A stretch of DNA of 64,000 bases from an uncultured Solirubrobacteraceae bacterium. GTDB taxonomy: Bacteria; Actinomycetota; Thermoleophilia; Solirubrobacterales; Solirubrobacteraceae. The stretch covers positions 3,197,327 through 3,261,326 of the forward strand of contig OY970301.1 in the NCBI GenBank assembly GCA_963716315.1, written 5' to 3'. Shown piece after piece: positions 34,284 to 50,967 of the stretch. Under the pieces are notes generated by a model, which made no database searches, was not told the origin of the DNA, and saw nothing but the letters and a program-made list of their open reading frames with translations. Made by a program: the position numbers and the translations under genes. Every line of letters starts with the position of its first letter. Position 1 is the first letter of the stretch.

Positions 34284-35259
34284 ACTTGCAGACGACCTCC
34301 TTGATGCATGGCTAACGCCGGCCTCGAGTGGTGACCCCACCCGTGCCGGCGCGGTAAGGGAGGGAGCCGCCGCTCTTGCCGAAAGCAGCGCGTCGGACGT
34401 GGTCGACATGGTTCTGCTCGCACACGCCGTTGAGCAGCCAGCTCCGGCTGAGCGCCTACGTGCTTCGATCTCTGCGCACGATCCAACGTTTGAGGGCCGA
34501 GCCGACCACCTACAGACACAGATCGCCGCCGCCTGGACGCTCGCACAGACGCTCCAGCTCAACTCGGACGCGGCTGTTACGGCCGCACTAGCGATCTGCT
34601 CAGCGCGGTTCTGCGATCTCGTCGCGCAGGGGCCAGAGCTTTATGCGATGGCGGTGGAGACGTTGCGTGAGCGCCAAATTTCGGCCCGCCGCCGTCCGGC
34701 GCTCGCTCGCGCCAAAGGCCACAAGTCGGTGGTGGGCGAGGAACTCGCCGCTGCACCGGGAATTAGTGGGGCCCAGATCAAGGCGGTTGCAGACGCCCTC
34801 AGTAAACAGATCACAACGCTAGCGGGGGTGCAAAACGGCATGGCGGATGCGGTGGAGCAGCACCTGACCGCGGCCGAGGAAGAGATCAATGCGCTCTGGT
34901 GGACGATCGGCGGACGTCGGGAAGGCGATGGGCCCACGTGGGGGGAACTCGGGTGCGCTGCCGGAATCCTCGCCGGCCGAGATCTGGCGACCATGACAAG
35001 CTTCTCTACTCCTCCTCCCTGGGCCGATGGCTTGCTCGCCCGGGCACTGGTCGGTATCAAAGACTGCACCCTCGAAGCAGCGATTTCAGCGCTCGACGGC
35101 CGGTTGGCACCGGGCGACGCAGCAACGAGTCCGTTGCTTCCCATCACCTCGGGCGCTGCGGGACACCCGCTACCGTTTGGGATCGGGGCCAGGCTGTTTC
35201 CTGCTTCCGCGCTCGCAAGGCAGACGCTGATTGAGGGCTTGCTGGAGCGCAGACTGTGA
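34276..35259 (+). CDS. GASH-like all-helical protein of a GTPase-associated conflict system
   Basis: Helical protein with EEINALWW motif; operon position. Confidence 0.7.
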   Translation: MPELADDLLDAWLTPASSGDPTRAGAVREGAAALAESSASDVVDMVLLAHAVEQPAPAERLRASISAHDPTFEGRADHLQTQIAAAWTLAQTLQLNSDAAVTAALAICSARFCDLVAQGPELYAMAVETLRERQISARRRPALARAKGHKSVVGEELAAAPGISGAQIKAVADALSKQITTLAGVQNGMADAVEQHLTAAEEEINALWWTIGGRREGDGPTWGELGCAAGILAGRDLATMTSFSTPPPWADGLLARALVGIKDCTLEAAISALDGRLAPGDAATSPLLPITSGAAGHPLPFGIGARLFPASALARQTLIEGLLERRL

Positions 35260-36164
35260 GCGACGCACAGCCGCCCAGCGATGAGGAGCTCCCCGGCGAG
35301 GAGCTCTCCGATGATGAGGAGCCGGTTGAGCAGGCGGCAGACGACTCCGCAGAGGATTCTGCTCGGGCGCTCGTAACCAACGACCGCTCCGTACTGCTGA
35401 GCGAGACCGAGGATCTCGCGGCACGTCACGGGTTGACTGTTGTGCTCGTCGCTGGCGAGGTCGATTGCGGGAAGACCACTCTGCTTGTCTCGATCTGGAA
35501 TGCGCTGCTGCAGCATGGGATGATCGGCCAAGCAAGCTTCGCGGGATCCCGCACAGCGCTCGGTTTCGAGCGCAGGGCATGGCTTTCACGCTGGGCATCA
35601 GGTGGGGCCGAGCCCGACACCGAGCGCACAAGAGAGAAGGACAACGGCTTTCTTCACCTCAGTCTTGCCAGTGATGGACGACTAAAAGAGGTTCTCTTCA
35701 GCGACGTAGCCGGCGAGACATTCAAAAAGATCAGGCAAGGAACCCCCATCGTGCAGGCCATCGACTGGGTTAGGCGCACAAATCACGCACTCTTCCTCGT
35801 CGACGGCGAGGCGATTGCCGACAAAGCCCGCAAGTCAACTGCGCTCTCAAATACGCGCCGGCTGATCGCCCAGTTTGGAAAGGCCAACGCAGCGGCGAGC
35901 GTGGCCGTCGTACTCGCAAAGTCCGACTACGTCGATGAGGAGGTACGGGCCGCGTGGGAGCCTGAGGCGAAGGTGCTGCTCAATCTGGCAAGAAAGGTCG
36001 ATGAGCACGCCATCCTTCTTGAGACAGCTGCACGTCCTGCGGACGCCGGTTCTCCCCGAGGCGTCGGAGACCTCGTTGATCGGGTCCTCTCAACGCCGTC
36101 GAGGCCAGCCACGGAACCCGGCGAAGCCTCCCGCGCAGAGCGAATGATCGGACGGGTGAAATGA
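35256..36164 (+). CDS. TRAFAC-like GTPase (double-GTPase system, first)
   Basis: GEVDCGKTT, FAGSRT..GFE, ERT, DVAGE, AKSD. Confidence 0.82.
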   Translation: MSDAQPPSDEELPGEELSDDEEPVEQAADDSAEDSARALVTNDRSVLLSETEDLAARHGLTVVLVAGEVDCGKTTLLVSIWNALLQHGMIGQASFAGSRTALGFERRAWLSRWASGGAEPDTERTREKDNGFLHLSLASDGRLKEVLFSDVAGETFKKIRQGTPIVQAIDWVRRTNHALFLVDGEAIADKARKSTALSNTRRLIAQFGKANAAASVAVVLAKSDYVDEEVRAAWEPEAKVLLNLARKVDEHAILLETAARPADAGSPRGVGDLVDRVLSTPSRPATEPGEASRAERMIGRVK

Positions 36165-36955
36165 CAGACGCTCGAGTTGCGATGCTTGGTCTCCCCCGAA
36201 CTGGGAAGTCCTCTTATCTTGGGACGTTGTGGCACTTCGCCGAGGAGCCGGCAGTCGTGGAGATCAACGAGATAGACATTGAGGGTGATCGCAAACACGT
36301 CCAAGTGCTCTCCGAACATATGCGGGCACTGACGGAAATCGAGCGTACTAACTTCGCTGAGGACGAGGGCTTCGATGTAGACGTCGAATTCGCCGATGCC
36401 GGGAAAGTGAAGCTCGTGATTCCTGACCACTCAGGCGAGCAGCTTCAGAGCTTGGTCGAGCGTCGCTCGTGGCCCCAGTTGCTCGGTGACGAGCTTGACG
36501 CCGCGACGGGCGTGATGCTGTTCGTGAACCCCGACGAGCACCACGCCCCTATCGATCTGCACGTCGCGCCTGGTGGCGGAACGCCGGAGGAGTTCAAGAA
36601 CAAGGACGCCTGCACCGCGGCTCAGCTAGTCGACGGCTTGGAAAACGTGATCGAAGCAATGAAGGACCGCTGGCCACTCAGGCTGTCGCTCGTCATATCG
36701 GCCTTTGATCGCGTCGTCGAGCTGTCGCCGGACGAATGGATCGACAAGCGGATTCCGGCGGTTGGTTCGATGCTCTCGAGCGACCCAGCCCGCGTCAGGG
36801 CGGCCGTGTTCGGCGTCAGCGCTCAGGGGGGCAGACGAGAGGATCTTGATGCCGTCCTCGCAGCCGGGGCGCTCCATGAGCGAGCTTGGGCGCGCGGTGG
36901 CGACGGAGGGAGCGTTCGCTTTTCCGATCCCGTGCGATGGGCTCTCGGGTGGTGA
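36161..36955 (+). CDS. TRAFAC-like GTPase (double-GTPase system, second)
   Basis: GLPRTGKSSY, ERT, DHSGE, SAFD, GVSAQG. Confidence 0.82.
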   Translation: MTDARVAMLGLPRTGKSSYLGTLWHFAEEPAVVEINEIDIEGDRKHVQVLSEHMRALTEIERTNFAEDEGFDVDVEFADAGKVKLVIPDHSGEQLQSLVERRSWPQLLGDELDAATGVMLFVNPDEHHAPIDLHVAPGGGTPEEFKNKDACTAAQLVDGLENVIEAMKDRWPLRLSLVISAFDRVVELSPDEWIDKRIPAVGSMLSSDPARVRAAVFGVSAQGGRREDLDAVLAAGALHERAWARGGDGGSVRFSDPVRWALGW

Positions 36956-38760
36956 TCGACCAAGCACTGCTGGGATACGATCAAGGACACCGACTCCTTA
37001 CGTCCTCGATCAAGCTCCCGGGCGACGCGCTTAGTGTCTTGGTCAGCGTGAGTGACACGAGTGTTCGCACCGGGCGGCGTCTAACCGGGCTGCCGCTGCC
37101 AGATTCCGAGCTCTACGCGCTACTCGGGACGTGGGCGGCGCCCGAGGCGAAGCGACCGGGTGCCGTGTGGGCGCACGCATTGCTGCTCGGACGGGACGCC
37201 TTCGAAGAATTTGAAGTGGCTTCGCTAGCGCGACTGCTGCATCCACCTGATTCGCAGAGATCACTCTCGGCGTACAGCACGCCGCTGACCCGCCCGAGGA
37301 CGGTCCGTGAGAGACCTAGACCCCCACGCGAGGCAATACTCGCTTGTGCGTATGCGCTCTATGCGTCGAAAGACCGCGTCGCGCACGTGACGGACGTCGG
37401 CGATGCCGAGGCTGCCGTGCTTTCGCTCTGGTCGGCACAATGGCCAGCCCTTCAGGCTCGCTATTCGTTCGCGGTGCGCTCCGAGCGACACCGGTCGCTC
37501 GCACCCTTCGATCTCGTCGTCTTGACGACGAGTCCGCCCTCTGAACCACGCCGCACCAGCGATGCCCGCTGGTTGCGGCAACTGGCCGATGAGCTAGCAG
37601 GCGAGAACAGTCCCGAGGTCACTGAGTGGCTTACTAGGTTCGGGCCCGACGAGCCTCCCCGCCCAGCATCGGTACGCGCACTCGGTCGCCTCTGGTCGAG
37701 CGTGGCATCGGGCGAGGTCCTAGACGTGGTTCAGCGCCTCGCGGACCGTTACCCATCGGCCGATGATCACGGCGACCTAAAGGTCGAGCTGTTTGGCCGG
37801 AATCGACGATGGTGGAAAGTCACAGAGTCTCGCCGCCTCATCGGCCTCCTTGGCTGTCCCGCCGACGTCTGGGACGTCGCGGGGCTAGATCTTGAAGAAC
37901 GCGTTAGCCGCGAGTCCGCAGCTGGTCGCTACCGCCCCCTGATCCGCGCGCTTTCCCCGGAGGCTCCCGGCGACGTGCGCGACGCGTTTATTGCTGGACT
38001 TGCCCAGTCGGTCAAGCCGGACATGCTGGGTGCCCTCGTGAGTCGCGATCCCCAGCTAGCGCTCGACCTACTGGCCGAGTCCGAGGTAGGCACAGACCCC
38101 GCGGCTTGGCGTGGCCTCGATGAGACCGCCACAGTCACACTGCTCCGCGGCGGGCGAACGGACCTGAACCCACCCGAACTCGCGGCTGCAATAACCGCCG
38201 GCCATCACACCGAGGTTCTAAAGACGGTGGGGGTGAGGGCAACGCTGAGAGCGGTCAAGCACGTCGACTCGAAAACGCTGGCGGGCATTGCAAAGAGTCC
38301 GATCTCACAACGGCTTTTGGACGGCGCGGACCCTCAAGAGGTTCTTCAGCTCGCGCTTGCTGGCTCGAAGGTGCCGGTGGACCAACGTCTCGCGGCTCTC
38401 GCCGCGCTGCGAAACGACGTTGATCCCTCATGGCTCGAGCTAGCAGCCAAGACGCTCGCTGAGCACCCTGATGCTGTTGACGTTGTGTTCGGCCCCTTGC
38501 ACGGGGCGGCAGTGCGCCATGAGCTCAGTGCGAAGACCGAGAGACTCCTTGCAAAGTCCCTTCCCAAAGGAAAGGACGTGCCACAGCAGTTGCGAGCGCT
38601 TCTTCTTCAGCGGGCGCGAAAGGAGCGATGGAGCCGCACGAAGCTCGCCGCAGCGACGCGGGGGGCCGGACCCGAGGCCGAACGGCTGTTGAAGGAGCTT
38701 GGCCCCAAGGATCCATTGGGCAAGACGATCAAATGGCTTCTGTCGAGGACGGGCTTGTAG
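36952..38760 (+). CDS. GAP1-N1-domain protein
   Basis: IDQALLGYDQGHRLL..TGLPL..TWAAPE..RPGAVWAH..LWSAQWP; GTG overlaps the previous stop. Confidence 0.78.
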   Translation: MIDQALLGYDQGHRLLTSSIKLPGDALSVLVSVSDTSVRTGRRLTGLPLPDSELYALLGTWAAPEAKRPGAVWAHALLLGRDAFEEFEVASLARLLHPPDSQRSLSAYSTPLTRPRTVRERPRPPREAILACAYALYASKDRVAHVTDVGDAEAAVLSLWSAQWPALQARYSFAVRSERHRSLAPFDLVVLTTSPPSEPRRTSDARWLRQLADELAGENSPEVTEWLTRFGPDEPPRPASVRALGRLWSSVASGEVLDVVQRLADRYPSADDHGDLKVELFGRNRRWWKVTESRRLIGLLGCPADVWDVAGLDLEERVSRESAAGRYRPLIRALSPEAPGDVRDAFIAGLAQSVKPDMLGALVSRDPQLALDLLAESEVGTDPAAWRGLDETATVTLLRGGRTDLNPPELAAAITAGHHTEVLKTVGVRATLRAVKHVDSKTLAGIAKSPISQRLLDGADPQEVLQLALAGSKVPVDQRLAALAALRNDVDPSWLELAAKTLAEHPDAVDVVFGPLHGAAVRHELSAKTERLLAKSLPKGKDVPQQLRALLLQRARKERWSRTKLAAATRGAGPEAERLLKELGPKDPLGKTIKWLLSRTGL

Positions 38761-38914: not shown

Positions 38915-40528
38915 CCTGGATCCACCGCATGATGGCCTGGTCGGGGGTGATTGATGTTGTTGGCGTGTTTCTCGGGCGCGTTGCTGGTGTTGGTCGGCGT
39001 GTGGGAGCGGTGGCGTTCTTTCGGAGGCTCTTGGCGACGTGTTTTCGGGCAGCGCTGAGCTGTCGGTGTTGACGGGTGGCTCGGCTGGTCCTCTGCTCGC
39101 GGCGGTTTGCGTTCAGGCGAGTTCTGGGAGTCCGCGGATGCGGGCGAGCGCGCTGGTGAAGTCGTGTTGCCATGGCCAGCGAGCGGGAAGGTGAAGCGTC
39201 CACTGCCGGCCGGTGCGGGTCAGCCGGCCGGGGATCTGGAGCAGTCGGCGGCGCATGGTGCGCGCGACGCGCACGGTCTCGCCGGAGAGCCCGATCGCGC
39301 TGGTCCAGCGCAGCAGGTTGTGCGCGATGCAGGCGATCACTGTCCAGGCGCTGTTCGCGTTGAACTGGCCAGAGGGAAAGTGCGCGAGCGCCTGGTCTTT
39401 GAGGTCGCGGATCGTGAGCTCCACGACGGCGTGCTGGCGGTGCTCTGCCTCGACGACCTCCAGAGGGTCGGTGCGGTTGGTGATGAACGGGAAATACCGC
39501 CAGTCCGGCCACAGCTTTGCTTGCGGGCCGATCAGTCGGGTGCGACGCACGATCAGCCGTCGTCCGCCGGCGGTCGTCTCGGCGATCTGCGCCTCCCCGT
39601 CTTGGGAGTAGTCCTTCAAGGGCCGCCACGCCGACTCGGGGATCTGTTTGATCGCGGCGGGAACCCAGAACTGCAGGCGGACACTGATCGAGTAGAGCCA
39701 GCCGGCGCTCTCGAGCCTCGCGATCAGCTTTCGGTTCCAGAACCCCGAGTCGGCCCTGAAAAGCTTCTCGCTCCTCGCGCCTGCTCGTTTGACGCGAGCG
39801 ATCAGCTCCTCGGCGAAACGCACGACACCGCGCTGGGTGTTCGCCTGTCCCTTGCGCAGGCGAACGTGCAGAACCTCGCCGCTGCCCGCGCGACTCGCGA
39901 GCAGCGGGTGATACCCGCGCTGTTTGGTGTATCCGAAACCGACACCCTCCTTGTGGTAGCCGTAGGTCTGGCCGATGAAGCTGTCCACGTCAACGATCAG
40001 CCGCTCATCACCCGGGCCGGCGCCCGCCCGCCACGCGCGTGTCAACGACTCTGCGAGGACCCGGTCGAGCTGGCGCACATGCCCGAAGGTGAAAGCCCGA
40101 AGAAACGTTCCGAGTGTCGAGGGCGCCGGCAGCCAGCCACCCAAGAGACGACGCGTACGCCCAGCCCGCAGCACATCACAATCATCGATCGAATCCGCGC
40201 CAAGCAGCATCGCGAACACGAGCGCCATCACCTTCCTGCCCGCGTTCGCTGCGCCCGGCCGGTCACGACGAAGTGCCACGAACCGGCCCACGAGAGCCTC
40301 GATCCCGAGCCGCCCCGCGAGCGTCGCGACCAACGCGATCCCCGCGTCCGAAACCACGCGATCATCGTCAAAGACGACACGCACCCCGTCCAGTCCGACC
40401 CGCTCGTCATCCTGCACCATACGAGTGACCTCCTGACCCCGGGCCGCGACAGCCGCAATCTGTCGCTACCAAGCCCGATTCAGGAGGTCATTCTTTGCTC
40501 ACCACCGGACAACACCGGTGGATCCAGG
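38915..40528 (-). mobile_element. IS1380-family insertion sequence
   Basis: 13-bp terminal IRs CCTGGATCCACCG; 5-bp target duplication CTAAG (38910-38914, 40529-40533). Confidence 0.92.
39113..40420 (-). CDS. IS1380-family transposase
   Basis: SDAG, DVDS, GYHPL, RADSGF, HAVVE..IRDLK. Confidence 0.93.
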   Translation of the reverse strand: MVQDDERVGLDGVRVVFDDDRVVSDAGIALVATLAGRLGIEALVGRFVALRRDRPGAANAGRKVMALVFAMLLGADSIDDCDVLRAGRTRRLLGGWLPAPSTLGTFLRAFTFGHVRQLDRVLAESLTRAWRAGAGPGDERLIVDVDSFIGQTYGYHKEGVGFGYTKQRGYHPLLASRAGSGEVLHVRLRKGQANTQRGVVRFAEELIARVKRAGARSEKLFRADSGFWNRKLIARLESAGWLYSISVRLQFWVPAAIKQIPESAWRPLKDYSQDGEAQIAETTAGGRRLIVRRTRLIGPQAKLWPDWRYFPFITNRTDPLEVVEAEHRQHAVVELTIRDLKDQALAHFPSGQFNANSAWTVIACIAHNLLRWTSAIGLSGETVRVARTMRRRLLQIPGRLTRTGRQWTLHLPARWPWQHDFTSALARIRGLPELA

Positions 40529-40532
40529 CTAA

Positions 40533-41426
40533 GAGCCTCTAACACAATGCGTCCGCCCGGACGAGTGCCTTGAAGCAGATCAGCCCGCAGCCAATGGCGA
40601 GGAACGCTTCGTGGATGTCCTCGCGGCGCTCGTAGCGAATTCGCAGCCGCCGGTACTGGTGCAGCCAGGAGAAGGTCCGCTCGATCACCCAGCGCTCGCG
40701 CCCGAGCCCCGAGCCGTGTCGACTCTTGGGTTTGGCGATCCTCGGCTGGATGCCACGGGCGCGTAACGCCAGCCGGTCGCGGCGGGAGTGATAGGCGCCG
40801 TCGCCCAGCAGTCGTGAGGGGCGCCGGCGCGGTCGCCCGCGCTTGCCGTGCACGGGCGGAATCCGATCGACCAGGCCGATCGTCTGGGTGACGTCGTTGA
40901 CGTTGGCGGCGGTCGTCAGGGCCGCGAGCGGGTTGCCGGCCCCGCAGGTGATCAGGTGGTGCTTTGAGCCACGGCGGCCCCGATCCACGGGGCTCGGGCC
41001 CGTTTTCGCGCCCCCCCGACAGCGCGGACGTGCGAGGAGTCGATCGCGGCTCTTGACCAGTCGATCAAGTCGGCCTGGTGGAGCTTGGCGAGCAGCACCT
41101 CGTGCAGGCGCTCCCACACGCCCGCCTCCTGCCACTCGTGCAGCCGCCGCCAGCAGGTCATGCCCGAACCGCAGCCCATCTCCTGTGGCAGGTACTCCCA
41201 CGGGATCCCCGTCTGCAGAACGAACAGGATGCCCGTGAGCACCTGGCGGTCGGGGATTCGCTTGCGACCCGGGTGCTTGAAGCGACGCGGCACCTTCGGG
41301 ATCAACGGCTCGACGATCTCCCACAGCTCGTCACTGACCAACTGCCTGGCCATGCGCGCCCCCTTCAGTCGAGGTCGCACACGGATTCGACGCCGGGTTA
41401 CATAACCCTCTTTACGTTAGGGGCTC
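40533..41426 (-). mobile_element. IS5-family insertion sequence (two ORFs)
   Basis: IRs GAGCC(T/C)CTAAC at 40533-40543 and 41416-41426; TAA duplication on both sides. Confidence 0.88.
40539..41353 (-). CDS. IS5-family transposase, OrfA/OrfB joined by a -1 shift at a G7 run (41011-41017)
   Basis: OrfA SDELW..TGIPW..IDSS; OrfB GSKHH..GDGAY..RWVIERTFSWL..RYER. Confidence 0.85.
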
Positions 41427-42199: not shown

Positions 42200-42309
42200 C
42201 GCGCAGTCGGCGGGCATCATGAGGTACTCGAACGTGTCGCGGCGCCGCGCACATGCGATCCGGCCGGCGGCGTGGCGCTAGCACACCCCGAGAGCGGTGC
42301 AAGACTCTA

Positions 42310-43362
42310 ATGACCGACGATCGGATGAGCGTCGTGCTGATCATTAACTCGGGTAATGGCACGGGGTTGAATTTCATACGCTGCCTTCAGGATGCCGGTG
42401 GCTGGCGCACGGTTGGACTCGACCCGACGCTTGAGGGCTACCACAGTAGTGAAGCTGACGTTCGGCACCTCGTTCCGTGGACCGACAGCGACGAACTGGT
42501 AGCGGCTATCAACCAGATTTGCGCCGACGAGGGAGCAGGACTCGTATATAGCGCTGATACCAGCGCTGAGCTCTTGGTTGTCTCCGAACACCGGGATCAG
42601 ATCGAAGCAGCGACCTTGCTACCACGGCTGGACGACCACCTTCGTATGGAGGACAAGTGGCTCACGTGGGAGGCGCTCACGACAGCAAAACGGGCCGTCC
42701 CCGACACAGTCCTTGTCCGCGAACTCGCCGACCTTGAGCGTATCTTCAATCGCCACGCAAGAGTCTGGCTCAGGCGGCGTCGCGGCAGTGCTGGCGCGGG
42801 CTCTGTCTCGACCTCCTCGCGCGCGTTCGCCGCAGCCTGGCTGGATGAGTACCAAGGCTGGGGTGATTTCACTGCGGCAGAGTGCCTATCGAGACGTACG
42901 GCAACGTTCAGTGGTCTCTGGTTCGATGGCGAGTTGCTTCGCTCGCAGTTGCGGGAGCGCCTTGGCTGGCGCTATGGTGAGTCGTCTGTTTCGGGCGTAA
43001 CCGGTATCACTGGCTGCCAACGGACCATCTCCGATCCCGAATTGCACGCGGAAGCTGAGGCCTGCATACGGGCGCTCAGCTCGACGCCGCATGGCATTAT
43101 CGGTGCCGATTTCACGTTTAGCGATGACGGCTCACCATTGCTGACCGAGATCCAGCCTGCACGCTTTTACTCGTCAATCTACTTCATCGCACGCGCTGGT
43201 TTGAACCTTGCAGAGGCATACTGCATGCTCGCGCGCGACGGGCGCGATGCGCTCGGTCCGGCGCGGGTTAATCCATGCGCTCCGAACCTTTACTGGGTGA
43301 AGGGCGTTGATATGCTGCCGCGACTGCTTAGCGAGAGCAACTATCTGGTCTCTGAGGGCTGA
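42310..43362 (+). CDS. ATP-grasp carboxylate-amine ligase
   Basis: GTGLNFIRCL, EDKWLT, GSAGAG loop, ADF..LLTEIQPARF. Confidence 0.8.
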   Translation: MTDDRMSVVLIINSGNGTGLNFIRCLQDAGGWRTVGLDPTLEGYHSSEADVRHLVPWTDSDELVAAINQICADEGAGLVYSADTSAELLVVSEHRDQIEAATLLPRLDDHLRMEDKWLTWEALTTAKRAVPDTVLVRELADLERIFNRHARVWLRRRRGSAGAGSVSTSSRAFAAAWLDEYQGWGDFTAAECLSRRTATFSGLWFDGELLRSQLRERLGWRYGESSVSGVTGITGCQRTISDPELHAEAEACIRALSSTPHGIIGADFTFSDDGSPLLTEIQPARFYSSIYFIARAGLNLAEAYCMLARDGRDALGPARVNPCAPNLYWVKGVDMLPRLLSESNYLVSEG

Positions 43363-43646: not shown

Positions 43647-44591
43647 ATGAACGTCTGCCAAGCACGCGAACGGTACGTCCGTTGGCTTATCGTGACAAAG
43701 GATCTATCGCCGCATACGATTCGCGCCTACGACAGCGACATAGCCGCGTTCGAGCGGTATCTAGGCAAGCCAGCAGTTGTCGGTGAGATCAATCAGGACC
43801 GCATCGTCGGTTTCATGGAGTCGCTGCGAGCTGGCGGGCTGTCCCCGAGGTCGATTAGACGTCGGGTTTCTGGTCTACGCGGCTTCTGTAGATGGTTGTG
43901 CTCGCAGGGTCTTTTGGATTCGGATCACTCAGCGGGTATTCCCGTCCTCGCTGGGAGATCGCGTGCGCTCCCCCACGTTCTCCCACAGCACGAACTCGAT
44001 CTCTTGCTCCAAGCGCTTCGCTCCACGGCTGGTCTTGGAGATGAGCCTGCCCCAACTCAGGTGCTGAGCCGACCCTACGAGTCCACGACGTTACTTGCGG
44101 TAGCGTTGATGGTCGCCACCGGCGCGCGGGTGCATGAGATCGTCGGCCTTAGCTGCGACGATATTGACCTACCAGGGCGAAGCCTGCGAATTACAGGTAA
44201 GGGACGTCGCCAGCGCCAGGTATTCCTCACGAACGATTGGATCGCGACTCTCACGCACGCATATCTCAATGCGCGCACCGTGCTCAATCTTTCACATCAA
44301 CAACTGCTCTTCAACTCGAACTACAATGTTCTCACAGCCCCGGCGCTCCGATTGCGGCTCGTCAAGGCGGCGGAAGATGCAGGGTTAGTCATCCGGGTAA
44401 CTCCACACATGCTGCGCCACACCGCGGCGACGCAACTGATTGAAGCTGGTGTGGACATTCGCTTCATCCAACGCCTGCTCGGACATGCGAGCCTGACTAC
44501 GACTGAAATCTACACGCACGTTTCGGACAAGGCGCTTAGCCGGGTGGTCTCGGACGCAGACGTCCTCGGAAGGTTGCTGCGGATGCGATAA
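43647..44591 (+). CDS. Tyrosine recombinase (XerC/D-like, no arm-binding N-domain)
   Basis: LSPHTIRAY N-domain; TGARVHE, GKG, HMLRH, LLGH, IYTH catalytic R-K-H-R-H-Y. Confidence 0.95.
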   Translation: MNVCQARERYVRWLIVTKDLSPHTIRAYDSDIAAFERYLGKPAVVGEINQDRIVGFMESLRAGGLSPRSIRRRVSGLRGFCRWLCSQGLLDSDHSAGIPVLAGRSRALPHVLPQHELDLLLQALRSTAGLGDEPAPTQVLSRPYESTTLLAVALMVATGARVHEIVGLSCDDIDLPGRSLRITGKGRRQRQVFLTNDWIATLTHAYLNARTVLNLSHQQLLFNSNYNVLTAPALRLRLVKAAEDAGLVIRVTPHMLRHTAATQLIEAGVDIRFIQRLLGHASLTTTEIYTHVSDKALSRVVSDADVLGRLLRMR

Positions 44592-44604
44592 CTAGGAATT
44601 ATAG
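44586..44604 (+). other. Putative recombination site (left), containing the recombinase stop codon and the SD of the next gene
   Basis: CGATAA-CTAGGAA-TTATAG immediately followed by ATG 44605. Confidence 0.8.
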
Positions 44605-45718
44605 ATGCCAGTCGGACACGAGGAGTTCGCTACACAACGACTGGTAGACCTTGAGCTGCTTCTGGTTCAACACGCAAGCGACCTAGCACTGTTTCTGGCG
44701 TACGATCGGCCCGGACGGCTCGCCGAACGGCCCGGTCTGGCTCGTGCATTCTTCGCGCAGCGGTGCGTCTCGGATGCCCAGCTGAACCAGACGATCGAGG
44801 CTTTCCGCTCCGTTGGAGCCTACGTGGAGGTCTTCGAGGGAGAGTTTCCTTTCATACAAGCTCTGGCTGCGGGTCGCCTCCAGGAGATCCCGAGGCCTCT
44901 GAAGGTCGTTTACAACGGACTCGAGGGTGGCGTGGTGCCTGATGGGTTTGAGCCCGGCCGCAAGGCGCTCATACCAGCGATCGCCGACTCCTATGGCATG
45001 GTGTGCTCGACTTCAAACGCCTACGTCTGTGCGCTCTGCAGGCACAAGTTTCACTACCTAACGTTGCTCCGTGCGCTTGGGGTCGCGACACGACCGACCT
45101 GGCAATATCAACCCACCAGTGGGTGGGCTGGCGCGAAACGACCCGCGAACGGGACGAAGGTTATTGTTAAGTCGACCTATGAGTCGTGGTCGGTCGGTGT
45201 CACCGAGCGGTCGGTCTTCGAGGTTGATGACATTCTGTGAGAAGAGGGTGACCGCCATCGCCGAGGAGATCGGTCAGCCTGTGACGGTCCAGGAATTCGT
45301 GGCGGGCCGCGAGGTCTGCGTCCCGATCTTCTGCTGTCCGGACCCGGTCGCGGCCCCGCCTGTCGAAGTGGTGTTGGATCGGGCTCCAGAAGACCCAAAC
45401 GCGGTCGTTACGATCCATGACGGACTTCGTAACGGCGGTGTGACCTACCGGCCGATGGATGTGCCGAGTAACATTGAGGGCCGGCTGCGGAGCATTGCTG
45501 TGGACGTCTTCGGCCTGCTAGGGCTGCAGTCCTTCGGCCGCATCGACTTCCGCGTTGACGCCGACGGCAACGGCTGGCTCACAGACGTCGCCGTGTCGCC
45601 AGGACTCAGCGACGAGAGCTCCGCCTTTAATTCGATCAAAGGGCTCGGCTTTGACCATGCAAGCTACCTTCGCCTCGTCATCGCTGGCACCCTCGCGTGC
45701 CGGGGCCTGCTCAGCTAG
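44605..45718 (+). CDS. D-Ala-D-Ala-ligase-like ATP-grasp protein (one extra base near 45232)
   Basis: VYNGLEGG, CRHKF, IVKSTYE..S.GV, VQEFVAGREV, GRIDFRVD..WLTDVAVSPGL. Confidence 0.8.
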
Positions 45719-48207
45719 TTATCACGCCAGAACTCGACCTCGGGCATCCTGAATCCATGGCCGAAGTTCTGCCACACCGGCCCGAATTCGGCTGGGCGAT
45801 CGGCGCTGACAAGGCACTCGTCGAACGACCGTGGTGACATCGTCTCTCCGGTCTCGATGATTTCGCCGAGGAGCTCGTGGCGTCTCACGAGTAGCGGACG
45901 AATTGCATAGGCGATTTTGTCGACGATGGGGGTTAGCTGCGTCCACTCAGCCTTGCATGTCGCCTTATCGCTCGAAACGTACAAGGCTGCTGCTCTGTTG
46001 GCCCGGAGCAGGTAGATCATGCTGGGCTCTGGGTCACTCCTGCTCGCAATAAGCTGGGCGTAGAGACGGTCGAAGACGGCGAGTGCTTCCTCGTAGCGCT
46101 CGGCGAGAGTGAGATAGACAGCTAGCGCGTTCTCGGCATAGTAGGGATCGTTGGCGAATTTGATCGAAGTCGCGATCTTTCGCTGCAGATCAGATGCCTG
46201 CTCGGCGTTGATTATTCCCATTCGGTACTTCACCAGCAGCCCGTTCGTGCGGGGGAAATCCGGTCTCGGGAACACGTCTGGTGGGTAATTGGCGATCAAG
46301 CTCTCGATTTCTTCATGGACTTGGGCGGCTTCGGGATAAAGAGAGAGGCAAATCAGGTTCGCGCCATAATTCGCGAGCGAGCGGTAGTACTCAAGCGGCC
46401 GACGAAGCACAGTCTGGCCCTCACGCGGAGCGAAGTACGTGGCGGCCTCCTTCGCGCGAATGCAAGCGACATCCGGCTGGTAGAGCCAGCCGCAGCAGCG
46501 GTCCATGGTGTACATGGCGTCCTTCGCGGCGACGTCGAAGCTAACACGGTCTAGCAGCGTGGCCTTAATGCGCCGCTCAAGCGCACGGCCGGCCTGCTTA
46601 TCGGTCATGTGCGTCAGGCCGAACAGCAGCAGTTGCATCAGACGCATACCGAGCTCGGGCTCCTGCACGGTGTAGTCCTCCCAGACTTCGAGGATCGCGC
46701 GGCCCTCTGCGCGGTCATCCTCGCTTCGCGTCGACATGAGACACATTGCCCGCAGATAATCGGCCTCCGCATGAAGGCTCTTCGACAGGTCCCGCGGAAG
46801 TCCGTCAAGTGTCGCCAAGCACTCTGCGTAGCGGTAGTGATTGACGTGGGCAAGAGCTGCCGCGAAGGCGTCGAGCACACCCTCGAGTTCGCAATCTTCA
46901 ATTGTCCGACGCACCGCGGGCTCAACCTGACGCCAGGCTTGTCCCTCCCGTTGAAGCTGGAGCCCAGCCTGTGCCGCCAAGGTGCTCGCGTCGCGATTCA
47001 TCTCTGCGCGGAGGGCATTCAGACAACGAAGCACGTACTCCGCAGGGCGCAGCATTCGCAGACAATCCGACCACCGTTCATGGATTCCGATCCTGTCCGC
47101 CGGGTTGAGCCCAAGAAAGTACCGACGGAATCGGTCATGTACGAAGACCCAGCGTTCGTCCGTCAGTTCGAGCATCTTCTCGTCACGACAGAAACGCAAC
47201 AGCCGCGCCGTCTCTGCTTCCTCGACTTCAGACGCGCACATGACTTCATCGCGGTCAAACGCCAAGCCCAACACCGCAGCAACCTGCAATAGAATCACGG
47301 CCTGCGCGCCAAGGGCTCCGAGATTCCGTATACGCTCGGAGAGCAGGCGGCGAATGAACTCCTCCGGGTCAGACGAAGAGAGCAGGGACTCGGCTTCGCC
47401 TGCCTCGATTCGCTCCGTGCACTTCTTCGCGAGCGCGAGGTGCCCGCCTGTTAGTTTGTACACCGCATCGGCGATGTCGGACGGCGGCTCCTCCATCTCC
47501 TCCAGCGAAGCGAGCACCTCCTCGAACCCATCCCTGGGGATCGGCTGCAACTTGAAGTAATGGGTCGTCATGGGTGCAAGCAGCAGGTCGCGAGCGCGCG
47601 GGTTCGCTACCTCCTGGTAGCGCTCCATGGTCTGCACTGCAAGCACACGCATCGCCGTCAGGAAGGGGAAGGACTGACACATACGTTCGTCCCGCAAGCT
47701 TCTCAGCAGCTCAAGCGACCTGACATCCCACCAGTGGAGGTTGTCAGCGATGAGTAGTAGCGGTCCCTTGCGGCTGAAGCGCTCAAGGTCGGCAAGAATG
47801 TCCCGCTCTGCATCGCCGAGGAGAATGGATGGATTCTGCTGCGTCCTAGCCCGGACCTTCGCCAAGGCTTCGATTGTGGTGGTGATGAGCCCGCCCGTGC
47901 CGACGAGCATCTCTCCTGTCTTGGCGAACGTCGTAAGCGCCGGAACTAGCGCTCCGGACCACTTCGGTAGCCCGATCATGGCCGACTTGAAAGGGTAGAG
48001 GGCGACTTCCTTTTTCCCCTCATCACCTTCCACTACAACTGCGCTACCGCCGCCCGCCTCCCAGAGCGCGCCGACGCCCTTCGCGAGCCATGACTTGCCC
48101 GAGCCTGGTGGCCCTTCTATGACGTCGATGTCGGCGCTTTCGCTGAGAGCCTTCGCTGCGTCCGCGGCGATCTCGTCGTAGCCGAGTACTGCCCAGAGTT
48201 CCGCCAC
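45715..48207 (-). CDS. P-loop ATPase (AAA_16/STAND-like) with long helical/TPR-like C-terminus
   Basis: GPPGSGKS Walker A, LLIADNLHWWD Walker B, TGGHL, FVHD; no LuxR HTH. Confidence 0.82.
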   Translation of the reverse strand: MAELWAVLGYDEIAADAAKALSESADIDVIEGPPGSGKSWLAKGVGALWEAGGGSAVVVEGDEGKKEVALYPFKSAMIGLPKWSGALVPALTTFAKTGEMLVGTGGLITTTIEALAKVRARTQQNPSILLGDAERDILADLERFSRKGPLLLIADNLHWWDVRSLELLRSLRDERMCQSFPFLTAMRVLAVQTMERYQEVANPRARDLLLAPMTTHYFKLQPIPRDGFEEVLASLEEMEEPPSDIADAVYKLTGGHLALAKKCTERIEAGEAESLLSSSDPEEFIRRLLSERIRNLGALGAQAVILLQVAAVLGLAFDRDEVMCASEVEEAETARLLRFCRDEKMLELTDERWVFVHDRFRRYFLGLNPADRIGIHERWSDCLRMLRPAEYVLRCLNALRAEMNRDASTLAAQAGLQLQREGQAWRQVEPAVRRTIEDCELEGVLDAFAAALAHVNHYRYAECLATLDGLPRDLSKSLHAEADYLRAMCLMSTRSEDDRAEGRAILEVWEDYTVQEPELGMRLMQLLLFGLTHMTDKQAGRALERRIKATLLDRVSFDVAAKDAMYTMDRCCGWLYQPDVACIRAKEAATYFAPREGQTVLRRPLEYYRSLANYGANLICLSLYPEAAQVHEEIESLIANYPPDVFPRPDFPRTNGLLVKYRMGIINAEQASDLQRKIATSIKFANDPYYAENALAVYLTLAERYEEALAVFDRLYAQLIASRSDPEPSMIYLLRANRAAALYVSSDKATCKAEWTQLTPIVDKIAYAIRPLLVRRHELLGEIIETGETMSPRSFDECLVSADRPAEFGPVWQNFGHGFRMPEVEFWRDN

Positions 48208-48226
48208 CGATAATTCCTAGTTATCG
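48208..48226 (-). other. Putative recombination site (right, inverted), containing the SD of the ATPase gene
   Basis: Minus strand CGATAA-CTAGGAA-TTATCG then GTG 48207; first 17 bp identical to the left site. Confidence 0.8.
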
Positions 48227-48367
48227 AACGAGGTGGCCATCAGCGCGAACTATATTGGATATGCGATCGGCGTGGAGATCGGCTTCGAGGGTCGAGATGC
48301 CCTCGACAGGCGGTGGTCGCATGGAGGATCCGTGATGGAGCACGGGGACGGTCCGCGCGGGCAGCAG

Positions 48368-49516
48368 ATGTCTGATGCAAGTCGCGGGGAGGCGCACTTC
48401 GAGTATCCATACGGGCCGGCGTTGCTCCCTGCGGACACTGCGACGCTGGCCGACATGTGGCGATACCTGCCGTTGCTGCCGTTGGATCCTGGGCCGATTG
48501 GGTTTCCTCTGGCTGTTGGTGGATCCCCGCTTCTTTCAGCGCCGGAGTTGCGGATGGAGTTGGCGATGCCCGCTCTCTGGCTAAAGGATGAGACGCGTGG
48601 GCCGAGCGGATCAAGTAAGGATCGCGCAACTGCGCTAGTTCTTGAGGACGGACGCCGTCGCGGGAGAGATACGGTGACGACCGCGTCTACCGGTAACGCC
48701 GCCGTCTCGGCATGTATTGGCGCTGCTGCTCTGGGGATGCGAGCTGTGGTGTTCGTGCCGAATAGGTGCGACGCCGGCAAGATGGCGAAGATGGGAGCAT
48801 GTGGTGCACAAGTGTTCACGGTGGATGCCGGGTACGCGGCAGCGCTCAGCTTGTCACGAGAGGCAGCATGTGCGTTCGGCTGGATAGACCGAAACGACTT
48901 GAATGCATTGACGCTCGAGGGCACGAAGACGGTGGCATTCGAGATCTGGGAGCAATTGGCACGTCGTGTTCCGGATGTGGTAGTCGTGTCAGTGGGCGAC
49001 GGCGCTACGTTGTCGGCGCTCGCTAAAGGCTTTCGGGAGATCCGTGCTTGCGGGGGAGCAACGCGCTTGCCGCGACTGGTCGGAATCCAGGCGGCGGCGT
49101 GTTCACCGCTCGTGCGAGCCTGGGCTGGCGAACTTCCAAAACCCGGTGACCTAGACCCAGCAGGAACCGCGGCCGAAGGGCTTGCGGTGACTGAGCCCTG
49201 CATGGCGGACGCAGTCATGAGAGACCTGGCGGATACCAATGGATGCCTTCTCGCTGTAACTGAGGCTGAGATTGAATCCGGAGTCATGTCGTTGGCGTGC
49301 CGGGCCGGCGTTCTGGCTGAGCCTGCCGCTGCTGCCGCGCTCGCCGGACTCAAGATTGCGTATACCCGCGGTATTATCGAGCGAGGGGACGAGACGGTGG
49401 TTCTCATCACGGGTCGCAGCACAACAATTGGTGAGTGCGGCCTGCGGGGTAACTTGGCGCGAGCGACTGTCGGGGAACTCGAAGCCCATATGACAGAAGT
49501 CAGGCCACCGTACTGA
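48368..49516 (+). CDS. Threonine synthase-like PLP enzyme (start uncertain)
   Basis: MWRYLPLLP, KDE...PSGSSKDR, ASTGNAA, EGTKT, EPAAA, LITG. Confidence 0.85.
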   Translation: MSDASRGEAHFEYPYGPALLPADTATLADMWRYLPLLPLDPGPIGFPLAVGGSPLLSAPELRMELAMPALWLKDETRGPSGSSKDRATALVLEDGRRRGRDTVTTASTGNAAVSACIGAAALGMRAVVFVPNRCDAGKMAKMGACGAQVFTVDAGYAAALSLSREAACAFGWIDRNDLNALTLEGTKTVAFEIWEQLARRVPDVVVVSVGDGATLSALAKGFREIRACGGATRLPRLVGIQAAACSPLVRAWAGELPKPGDLDPAGTAAEGLAVTEPCMADAVMRDLADTNGCLLAVTEAEIESGVMSLACRAGVLAEPAAAAALAGLKIAYTRGIIERGDETVVLITGRSTTIGECGLRGNLARATVGELEAHMTEVRPPY

Positions 49517-49524
49517 AAGTACCG

Positions 49525-50967
49525 GTGCCCCGATCTCGAGTACCGGCAGGTGATCAAGGCGAGGAGCGCTTTGAGCGGCTCCATTTCGCTCCCGCGCCGG
49601 CGGTGTCCGGGGCAGTACCTGGGCCGGGTTCGCAGCGGATGTTGGCCGAACAGGCGACCCTGGAGAGTCGCGCACGCTCCTATCCACGCGCCGTGCCGGT
49701 TGCTTTCGAGGAGGGACGAGGGGCAACTCTGCGCGACGTGGACGGCAACACCTACGTGGATTTCTTCAGCGGAGCGGGCGCGCTCAACCTCGGCCACGGG
49801 CACCCGGCCGTTGCGCGCGCAGCGAGCGAACAGCAGGCGCGGCTGGTTCACGCGCTGGACTTCCCAACGCCTCCTAGGCTCGCGCTGATGCGCCGCCTCA
49901 AGCGGATCTTGCCGGGTACCCTGCGACGCACGGCGCGCTTTCACTTTGGCGGGCCCACGGGCTCGGATGCGGTGGAGGCGTCGCTGAAGCTCTTGCGTTC
50001 CCACACTGGCCGACGGCCGATAGTGGCGTTCCAGGGCTCCTACCACGGGATGACGGCGGATGCGTTGACGGTCACCAGCGATGTGGGTTGCGGGGGACCG
50101 CAGGATACGGCTGTGCACTTCGTGCCATTTCCGTATTGCTACCGATGCCCCCTGGGACTGCGTCCGCAGTCGTGCGGGACGGCGTGCGCGAAGCTGCTGG
50201 AGACCTCCCTGCAGGATCCCTTTAGTGGGCTGCCGAAGCCCGCGGCAGTGATCGTGGAGCCGATCCAGGGGGAGGGCGGCACAATCGTCCCGCCGACGGG
50301 GTGGCTCGCGGAGATACGGGCGATCACGCGCAGGCACGATGTGCCGCTGATCATGGACGAGATCCAGACGGGGTTCGGTAGGACGGGGATGATGTTCGCG
50401 TGTGAACACGACGGGGTCACCCCCGAGGCGATTGTGCTCTCAAAGGCGCTCGGGGGGATCGGCTACCCGCTGTCGGGGATCGCGTATGACGAGTCGCTGG
50501 ATACATGGGAGCCCGGGGCGCACATCGGAACATTCCGTGGACACCAGGTTGGGATGGCGGCGGGGGCGGCGGCGATCGAGCTGATGCTGGGGCTCGACCT
50601 GCCTGGACGCGCACGCGAGCTGGGTAAGCTCACGCTGGGGCTGCTCGGCGAAGCGGCGGCGGCGGAGGATCTGATTGCTGTCGGGGAGGTGCGCGGGCGC
50701 GGGCTAATGATCGGCGTAGAGATGGTGCATGACCGCGAGAGCAGGGAGCCGTGGCCTGAGTTGGCGGCGGCAGTGCGCAAGGCATGCTGCGAAAAAGGGC
50801 TGATCATCGAGCTCGGAGGCCACTACGGCAACGTGGCGCGCTTTCTGCCGTCGCTTGTGATCTCCCGTGAACTCCTAGTAAGGGGGATCGAGATTTTTGT
50901 AGACGCACTGCGGGACAGCGAACGGAAATTCCACCAAGAACCGGGATGCGCTTGGGCGCAGCCTTGA
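49525..50967 (+). CDS. Class III aminotransferase, diaminobutyrate-2-oxoglutarate transaminase-like
   Basis: ESRARSYPR, GALNLGH, PTGSDAVE, EPIQGEGG, DEIQTGFGRTG, SKALGG, GTFRG. Confidence 0.9.
   Translation: MPRSRVPAGDQGEERFERLHFAPAPAVSGAVPGPGSQRMLAEQATLESRARSYPRAVPVAFEEGRGATLRDVDGNTYVDFFSGAGALNLGHGHPAVARAASEQQARLVHALDFPTPPRLALMRRLKRILPGTLRRTARFHFGGPTGSDAVEASLKLLRSHTGRRPIVAFQGSYHGMTADALTVTSDVGCGGPQDTAVHFVPFPYCYRCPLGLRPQSCGTACAKLLETSLQDPFSGLPKPAAVIVEPIQGEGGTIVPPTGWLAEIRAITRRHDVPLIMDEIQTGFGRTGMMFACEHDGVTPEAIVLSKALGGIGYPLSGIAYDESLDTWEPGAHIGTFRGHQVGMAAGAAAIELMLGLDLPGRARELGKLTLGLLGEAAAAEDLIAVGEVRGRGLMIGVEMVHDRESREPWPELAAAVRKACCEKGLIIELGGHYGNVARFLPSLVISRELLVRGIEIFVDALRDSERKFHQEPGCAWAQP

Follow-up and report, generated by a model that had tools for sequence, protein, structure and literature searches.

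Background

Site-specific inversion that links an open reading frame (ORF) to a promoter, with alternative genes and mixed populations, is known from vpma of Mycoplasma agalactiae, vsp of M. bovis and mba/UU172 of Ureaplasma, in which, according to PMC3047005, one active promoter serves surface antigens that are often chimeric. In the present work a locus was analysed in a 64,000-nucleotide (nt) stretch of contig OY970301.1 from an uncultured soil bacterium of the Solirubrobacteraceae, the whole of which is called the window, where the gene of a tyrosine recombinase is followed by a cassette of two convergent genes between two inverted recombination sites. Among relatives of this locus the cassette is found in both orientations between the inverted sites, and a flip likely exchanges the genes of two inward-pointing expression units. 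A sequence-only reading of the window had set the locus apart from described inversion systems as one that switches whole genes; this contrast was overstated, since the inversions of Mycoplasma vsp/vpma already connect an entire silent ORF with a promoter (PMC3047005). What distinguishes the cassette from vpma/vsp is its whole unrelated genes, an enzyme against a STAND-TPR or membrane protein, together with predicted expression units at both ends (that is, a predicted second promoter), stop codons and a Shine-Dalgarno (SD)-like sequence within the site, and cassettes that appear to be exchangeable.

An adjacent invertase and alternative genes on an invertible segment are shared with the Hin flagellar switch (PMC8987985) and with the phage Mu G and P1 C segments, but these use serine recombinases, carry flagellin or tail-fibre cargo of one kind and have no cassette repertoire. 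In the pdif (XerC/D-dif) modules of Acinetobacter plasmids, Xer-type sites are inversely oriented around seemingly shuffled modules and are served by host XerC and XerD at two different arms (PMC9771954), whereas the present locus has a dedicated recombinase beside a near-symmetric site that overlaps the stop of that same recombinase, a pair of convergent modules and sites that are themselves part of the translation signals. With integrons it has in common a tyrosine recombinase platform with a promoter and replaceable cargo (PMC9771954), and several neighbours are defence genes; unlike them it has two inverted sites, one slot and no tandem array, and the window recombinase reaches 103 bits against a cut-off of 265 bits for the integron integrase model TIGR02249. 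FimB/FimE-type switches consist of a short promoter-only segment, while the cassettes here are gene-filled and 1.5-7.2 kb long, and the score against that invertase type is 52 bits with a cut-off of 221. Avs (AVAST) and other STAND-TPR sensors (PDB 8dgc, 6mfv) share the order of STAND NTPase and helical repeats with one protein of the cassette, which however has neither an N-terminal effector nor a PADLOC match to the Avs models and shares its invertible segment with an enzyme. Because of these differences the locus is set apart from vpma/vsp, pdif modules, integrons and Fim switches. A full-text literature search, with subscription papers mostly outside its scope and supplementary classification tables not covered, found no description of it, and the system is apparently an undescribed variant of programmed inversion.

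Results

The two sites of the window, each 19 bp long and built of an arm, a 7-bp spacer and an arm, are located at 44586..44604 on the + strand (inner site, site 1) and, inverted and with the same spacer, at 48208..48226 on the - strand (outer site, site 2). Both the coordinates and the letters given in the sequence-only reading were reproduced, as was the AT-rich nature of the sites, with a GC content of 32% and 37% against 65% for the window. Even when three mismatches are tolerated, the 17-mer common to both has just these two copies in the window (0.01 expected), and the 3.44-Mb genome contains no further match to the site pattern in which the spacer also agrees. The TAA of the recombinase (44589-44591) lies within the left arm of the inner site, which contains a second stop in its spacer and an SD-like AGGA; AGGA is placed 7 nt upstream of the ATG at 44605 and, in the outer site, likewise of the GTG at 48207, again in agreement with what had been read from the letters. 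The arms had been described as palindromes of 6 bp, of which the near-symmetry stands but not the length, as site 1 is palindromic at only 5/6 positions (right arm TTATAG) and relatives conserve 5 bp of the arm, the outer base being variable.

A scan of genomes with the window recombinase gave 376 relatives, and the best 80 of the 376 (L001-L080), nearly all from Thermoleophilia/Solirubrobacterales according to their record titles, were analysed; partner sites and spacers were counted in 81 sequences (80 loci and the window) and outer flanks in 69 loci. That the site covers the recombinase stop is conserved in these homologs, the stop being within the site in 68/80 sequences having a stop (56 as TAA of the arm, 6 as an overlapping TGA and 6 in the spacer). 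An inverted partner site is located 1.5-7.2 kb downstream in 57/81 sequences. Of the 24 without one, the contig breaks off 14-150 nt past the stop in 11 cases, 0.8-6.3 kb past it in 7 and within the gene in one; two loci are empty, in two no partner follows over 8 kb, and in one there is no site. Tyrosine recombinases need matching spacers for strand exchange, and this is what was found: although variable between loci, the spacers are identical within the locus in 57/57 cases, including 23/23 of the non-modal spacers, compared with a mean of 22 and a maximum of 31 after permutation.

In these relatives the segment almost certainly inverts, with its breakpoints at the sites. Two contigs of a single genome, L025 and L068 of G597, share 2,561 nt upstream at 99.96% identity and then enter opposite ends of the cassette at the site. 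Between L130 and L053 a segment of 4,714 nt (98.4%) is reversed exactly from site to site while the flanks are colinear, and in G007 the same cassette end continues from both flanks. These three cases bear out the expectation of the earlier reading that inverted sites give inversion and that both orientations occur in homologs. In three further genomes (G001 with locus L028, by its title a cultured strain, G003 and G008) the cassette forms a separate contig reaching from site to site; as a 19-bp repeat alone should not break an assembly, we infer that both types of junction were present in those samples. The mixed orientation in G009 was not counted, since a longer repeat common to both of its cassette ends could by itself break the assembly, and G010, which is unpublished and where both orientations were seen, was not used for any claim. 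Among the matches listed, 33/120 ATP-grasp homologs are on contigs of 3,570-3,745 nt (sizes from the list), and 17/18 ATP-grasp cassettes span 3,610-3,641 nt. The enzyme is first in 30/57 loci and its partner in 27/57. On a 27-row tree of SHMT-like enzymes there are 8 changes of orientation, and a STAND tree of 14 rows has 4. The relatives thus combine what is expected of programmed inversion, namely inverted sites, a matching spacer, both orientations together and breakpoints at the sites.

The recombinase itself (43647..44591, + strand) is an Xer-like protein of 314 amino acids (aa) with the Pfam domains Phage_integrase and SAM_1. Its catalytic set, by motif position, is R161, K185, H254, R257, H280 and Y289, with R161, K185, H280 and Y289 invariant in 76/76 aligned homologs, and the R-K-H-R-H-Y set together with the SAM-like N-terminal domain places it in the tyrosine recombinase superfamily. 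It scores below the cut-offs for XerC (205 against 335 bits) and XerD (196 against 330 bits).

When analysing the outer flank of the window, a predicted -10 box (TATAGT, 48249..48254, - strand) pointing into the cassette was identified, followed by a predicted leaderless mini-ORF of 7 codons, MATSFDN (48217..48240, - strand), which is closed by the TAG of the outer spacer. Over the loci, 57/69 outer flanks have a TANNNT box that is directed into the cassette and ends 18-34 nt (mostly 23-26) before the outer site, compared with 13 on the opposite strand and with shuffles giving a mean of 16 and a maximum of 29. A short ORF that opens with ATG or GTG, in most cases 6-11 nt downstream of the box, and is in frame with the stop at spacer positions 2-4 is present in 54/69, compared with 3 and 4 in the other frames and with 14 (maximum 29) in shuffles. 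As the loci are related to one another, these shuffles overstate the significance. Seven outer flanks had been held out from these counts and were scored separately, giving the -10 box in 7/7 and the in-frame start in 6/7. TAA, TAG or TGA occupies spacer positions 2-4 in 135/135 sites of the first locus set, and the outer sites of the Methylobacterium and Paenibacillus loci described below read ATG-codon-TAA. On the inner side no -10 box at a fixed position was found before the recombinase by inspection. Both ends of the cassette therefore look like expression units whose promoters would probably be exchanged by a flip, to judge from the positioned -10 box and from the in-frame ORF of the outer flank that ends in the spacer.

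In 71/105 cargo genes the start is situated 0 or 3 nt behind the site. Among L001-L080 the cargo is in frame with the spacer stop in 76/105 genes, above the expectation from spacing alone, an excess that could represent read-through or a geometry of coupling. In L080 the mini-ORF is replaced by a 313-codon ORF reaching the outer spacer stop. Around 20 loci (e.g. L012, L057, L074) contain the motifs GATAAAC-N-GGTT and GTTGTCCCG, conserved 25-90 nt upstream of the recombinase and possibly an operator or alternative promoter; neither was seen in the window. A scan for promoters and terminators gave 3 terminator-like sites in the window against 3.6 expected, none of them at the junction of the cargo genes, and a search of the 64,000 nt for tRNA genes gave none.

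The two cargo genes of the window are convergent and overlap by 4 nt at their stops. The one behind the recombinase (44605..45718, + strand) is a D-Ala-D-Ala-ligase-like ATP-grasp gene, ~370 aa in relatives, which is frameshifted near 45233 in this assembly. Relatives of 90-95% identity from four runs have one base fewer there, while the sole run at 99+% identity to the window leaves the position uncovered, and the frameshift is either a sequencing error or a real pseudogene. The C-terminal piece, the only one to score, reaches 40 bits against a cut-off of 243 for the D-Ala-D-Ala ligase equivalog, and intact relatives resemble Ddl distantly in Pfam and PDB scans. The opposite gene (45715..48207, - strand) codes for 830 aa with Pfam AAA_16 below cut-off. 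Its structural model (pLDDT, the predicted local distance difference test, 84) gave as best fold matches the STAND-TPR protein 6mfv, Avs3, Apaf-1 and MalT (best E 1.7e-10), with low whole-chain TM-scores of 0.2-0.3, and a PDB sequence search with the STAND alignment matched Walker A alone. On this model the protein is a STAND NTPase with a P-loop, helical domains and C-terminal TPR-like repeats. Both gene types named in the earlier reading, ATP-grasp and ATPase, are thus present, although it had noticed neither the frameshift in the former nor the STAND-TPR nature of the latter.

Across the loci the cassettes pair a modifying enzyme, head-on, with a STAND-TPR or membrane protein. A STAND protein is faced by an ATP-grasp enzyme (sometimes with an OTCase-like gene), by an SHMT-like enzyme (with ADH, methyltransferase, CDP-alcohol transferase or GNAT), by GT2 (with DegT) or by a carbamoyltransferase (with TauD); one cassette type carries a SIR2-NB-ARC protein, and in others a methyltransferase, CDP-alcohol transferase or UbiA is opposite a protein of unknown family. 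The SHMT-like enzymes form four clades with one partner family each (3 changes, the minimum), which argues that enzyme and partner travel as a unit.

The earlier reading had missed that the cargo between the sites is swapped. Near-identical recombinases carry unrelated cassettes (L013 and L056 were excluded from the recombinase tree). Over the 60 nt outside site 1, L012 and L013 have an identity of 97%, which falls to 23% inside; they match at 94% as far as the final base of site 1 and again, at 96%, over the 3.2 kb that start at site 2, while the cargo in between is unrelated. Likewise, unrelated cargo lies between the sites of L021 and L047 with flanks of 98% and 91% identity. Homology ends and resumes at the sites as in an exchange of pdif-like modules, a pattern which recombination in the flanks could also give. 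Two loci, L049 and L066, are empty and have a single site with reversed spacer, as if the cassette had been deleted between the left arms, which may be a real loss or an assembly error. In L033, L052, L069 and L032 the recombinase and site 1 are separated by an additional 0.8-2 kb of DNA, with the recombinase 3' end repeated ahead of the site in L033 and L052.

The exact site pattern was found in only 4/201 genomes of the order and 1/401 of the phylum (the window's genome counted), and the cassette system is therefore both rare and accessory. Three genes arranged in the same way, with two inverted sites, were also found on plasmid pMRAD01 of Methylobacterium radiotolerans (recombinase 40% identical) and, in the opposite orientation, on a Paenibacillus plasmid (28% identical). 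In a set of 80 metagenome loci the site is at the recombinase stop in 28, of which 15 have recombinases 32-48% identical to that of the window; the site match in L187 was spurious and had been removed. A viral contig matching the site was set aside as it has no recombinase match and no cargo homolog, and L012, labelled Chloroflexota, was not counted as a cross-phylum case since its recombinase groups with Solirubrobacterales. Genome G003 (C55, C74, C78, C122) contains six sites with two spacer variants, which suggests two systems side by side. On the Sulfitobacter plasmid NZ_CP072616.1 (L118 4707, 11660) SHMT-like and methyltransferase genes face a large gene and there are two site-like palindromes, with unequal spacers and no annotated recombinase adjacent to them.

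Upstream of the recombinase in the window are consecutive genes for Double-GTPase 2, Double-GTPase 1 and GAP1-N1 (35256-38760, + strand, 5 kb away), a known type of conflict system, then a DDE transposase and a second transposase-like pair of overlapping ORFs (39113-41380) and a PylC-like ATP-grasp gene (42253-43362, + strand). Downstream of the cassette are a threonine-synthase-like and a diaminobutyrate aminotransferase-like gene (48332-50967, + strand). The PylC-like, threonine-synthase-like and aminotransferase-like genes stay linked in relatives of 90-95% identity and could, together with the cassette enzyme, form a small biosynthetic set; as parts of the cassette they were rejected, not being seen beside other loci.

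Discussion

The adjacent tyrosine recombinase likely flips the cassette. From the chemistry of such enzymes it would bind the two arms of each site and exchange strands across the matching 7-bp spacer, so that inverted matching sites would lead to inversion. One end of the cassette would be served by the recombinase transcript, with its ORF stopping in the site, and the other by the predicted promoter with its leaderless mini-ORF stopping in the spacer; ribosomes from either side would terminate in the site and re-initiate at the cargo gene, which begins 0 or 3 nt beyond it. Since the -10 box is fixed at the outer end, the outer promoter would likely be the main driver, in the window's state that of the STAND gene, and the same sites would allow the replacement of whole cassettes.

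Alternatively the sites could serve mainly for insertion and exchange of cassettes in a pdif-like manner, both genes being always read from the two promoters and inversion a by-product of little effect. The unrelated cargo behind near-identical recombinases, the expression signals at both ends, the empty loci L049 and L066 with their single reversed site and the extra DNA at site 1 of L033 and L052, behind the repeated recombinase 3' end, all fit this explanation. It is nevertheless considered improbable, since both orientations coexist in single assemblies and are close to 1:1 across loci, which argues for frequent flipping, and since the ends are unlike, with a -10 box fixed at the outer end and none before the recombinase; the empty loci are perhaps assembly errors. 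A simpler switch, in which the gene behind the recombinase is expressed and the other silent, corresponds to the earlier proposal that a flip swaps the gene read behind the recombinase; of this the flipping stands, but the outer end has a predicted promoter and mini-ORF of its own. Inversion loci with a single promoter are known (PMC3047005), the recombinase stop is in the site in 68/80 sequences and 12/69 outer flanks have no positioned -10 box. Against this, the outer -10 box and in-frame mini-ORF are far above the shuffles, also in held-out flanks, the spacer stop is kept in 135/135 sites even though 62/68 recombinases stop earlier, in the arm, and the Methylobacterium and Paenibacillus outer sites have ATG-codon-TAA, all of which makes such an either/or switch still less probable than mere exchange. 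Short AT-rich palindromes beside start codons also resemble operators, here of a regulator for both genes, with the differences in orientation as old rearrangements or assembly errors; an operator would have no need of spacers that co-vary within the locus, and it is precisely at the sites that the orientation reverses and homology is lost, so that this explanation is very unlikely indeed.

Several observations weigh against inversion that exchanges two expression units and against the roles proposed below. The flipped junction of the window itself, which the earlier reading would have expected among the reads, was looked for in eight sequencing runs, all of low-depth contigs, and neither it nor any joint was found, while the contigs spanning site 1 (X2, X3, X4, X6, X7) and site 2 (X2) have the window's orientation. 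L056 and L064 continue for 8 kb past site 1 without a partner and L041 has no site. To the outer flanks lacking a positioned -10 box can be added that the promoter scan of the window did not list the outer promoter, there being no matching -35 box, and that distant members have spacers without a stop (CTCGGAA, CTGCGAA, CTGGGAA, TCGGGGA, CTATGAA). Regarding function, at least four cassette types are without any STAND protein, that of the window lacks an N-terminal effector domain (Walker A begins at residue 33), PADLOC gave no match for the window's cargo proteins, and the 17/148 flanking ORFs that did match PADLOC models, AbiE, Mokosh, Tiamat, PifA and SIR2 among them, are a figure with no baseline in which many ORFs are mechanical calls.

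With inversion and exchange of expression units retained as the preferred reading, the comparison of flanks and cargo slightly favours a site-specific replacement of whole cassettes at the sites, though homologous recombination in the flanks would yield the same picture. An immune role of the cassette is what we infer from its content. It is conceivable, at somewhat less than even odds, that the switch is a form of bet-hedging in defence, between a sensor state (the STAND-TPR or membrane protein) and a state with the cognate enzyme making a ligand or modification. A more far-reaching and at present doubtful idea is that of a natural and widespread platform for cassette exchange, where the same recombinase would not only invert but also replace whole sensor/enzyme cassettes in one slot with a promoter on either side, giving a phase-variable and reprogrammable NLR-like immunity in which the site supplies the stop and the ribosome-binding signal to whichever gene comes in and each STAND protein is tied to the chemical of its partner enzyme.

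Conclusion

The mechanism of the switch is well supported and its regulation is predicted, with defence as the most likely of the candidate functions. If this is true, the locus would represent a compact switch whose recombination site also acts as a translation signal, and perhaps a case of recombinase-mediated cassette exchange in nature. Several of the spacer variants could serve as orthogonal recombination sites, and cultured carriers (Methylobacterium radiotolerans JCM 2831, Paenibacillus sp. IHBB 10380 and Solirubrobacter phytolaccae KCTC 29190) make direct tests feasible. Many uncharacterised STAND-TPR proteins would be tied to cognate enzymes (ATP-grasp, SHMT-like, glycosyltransferase, carbamoyltransferase), and these enzyme/STAND pairs would be testable pairs for what bacterial NLR-like proteins sense.

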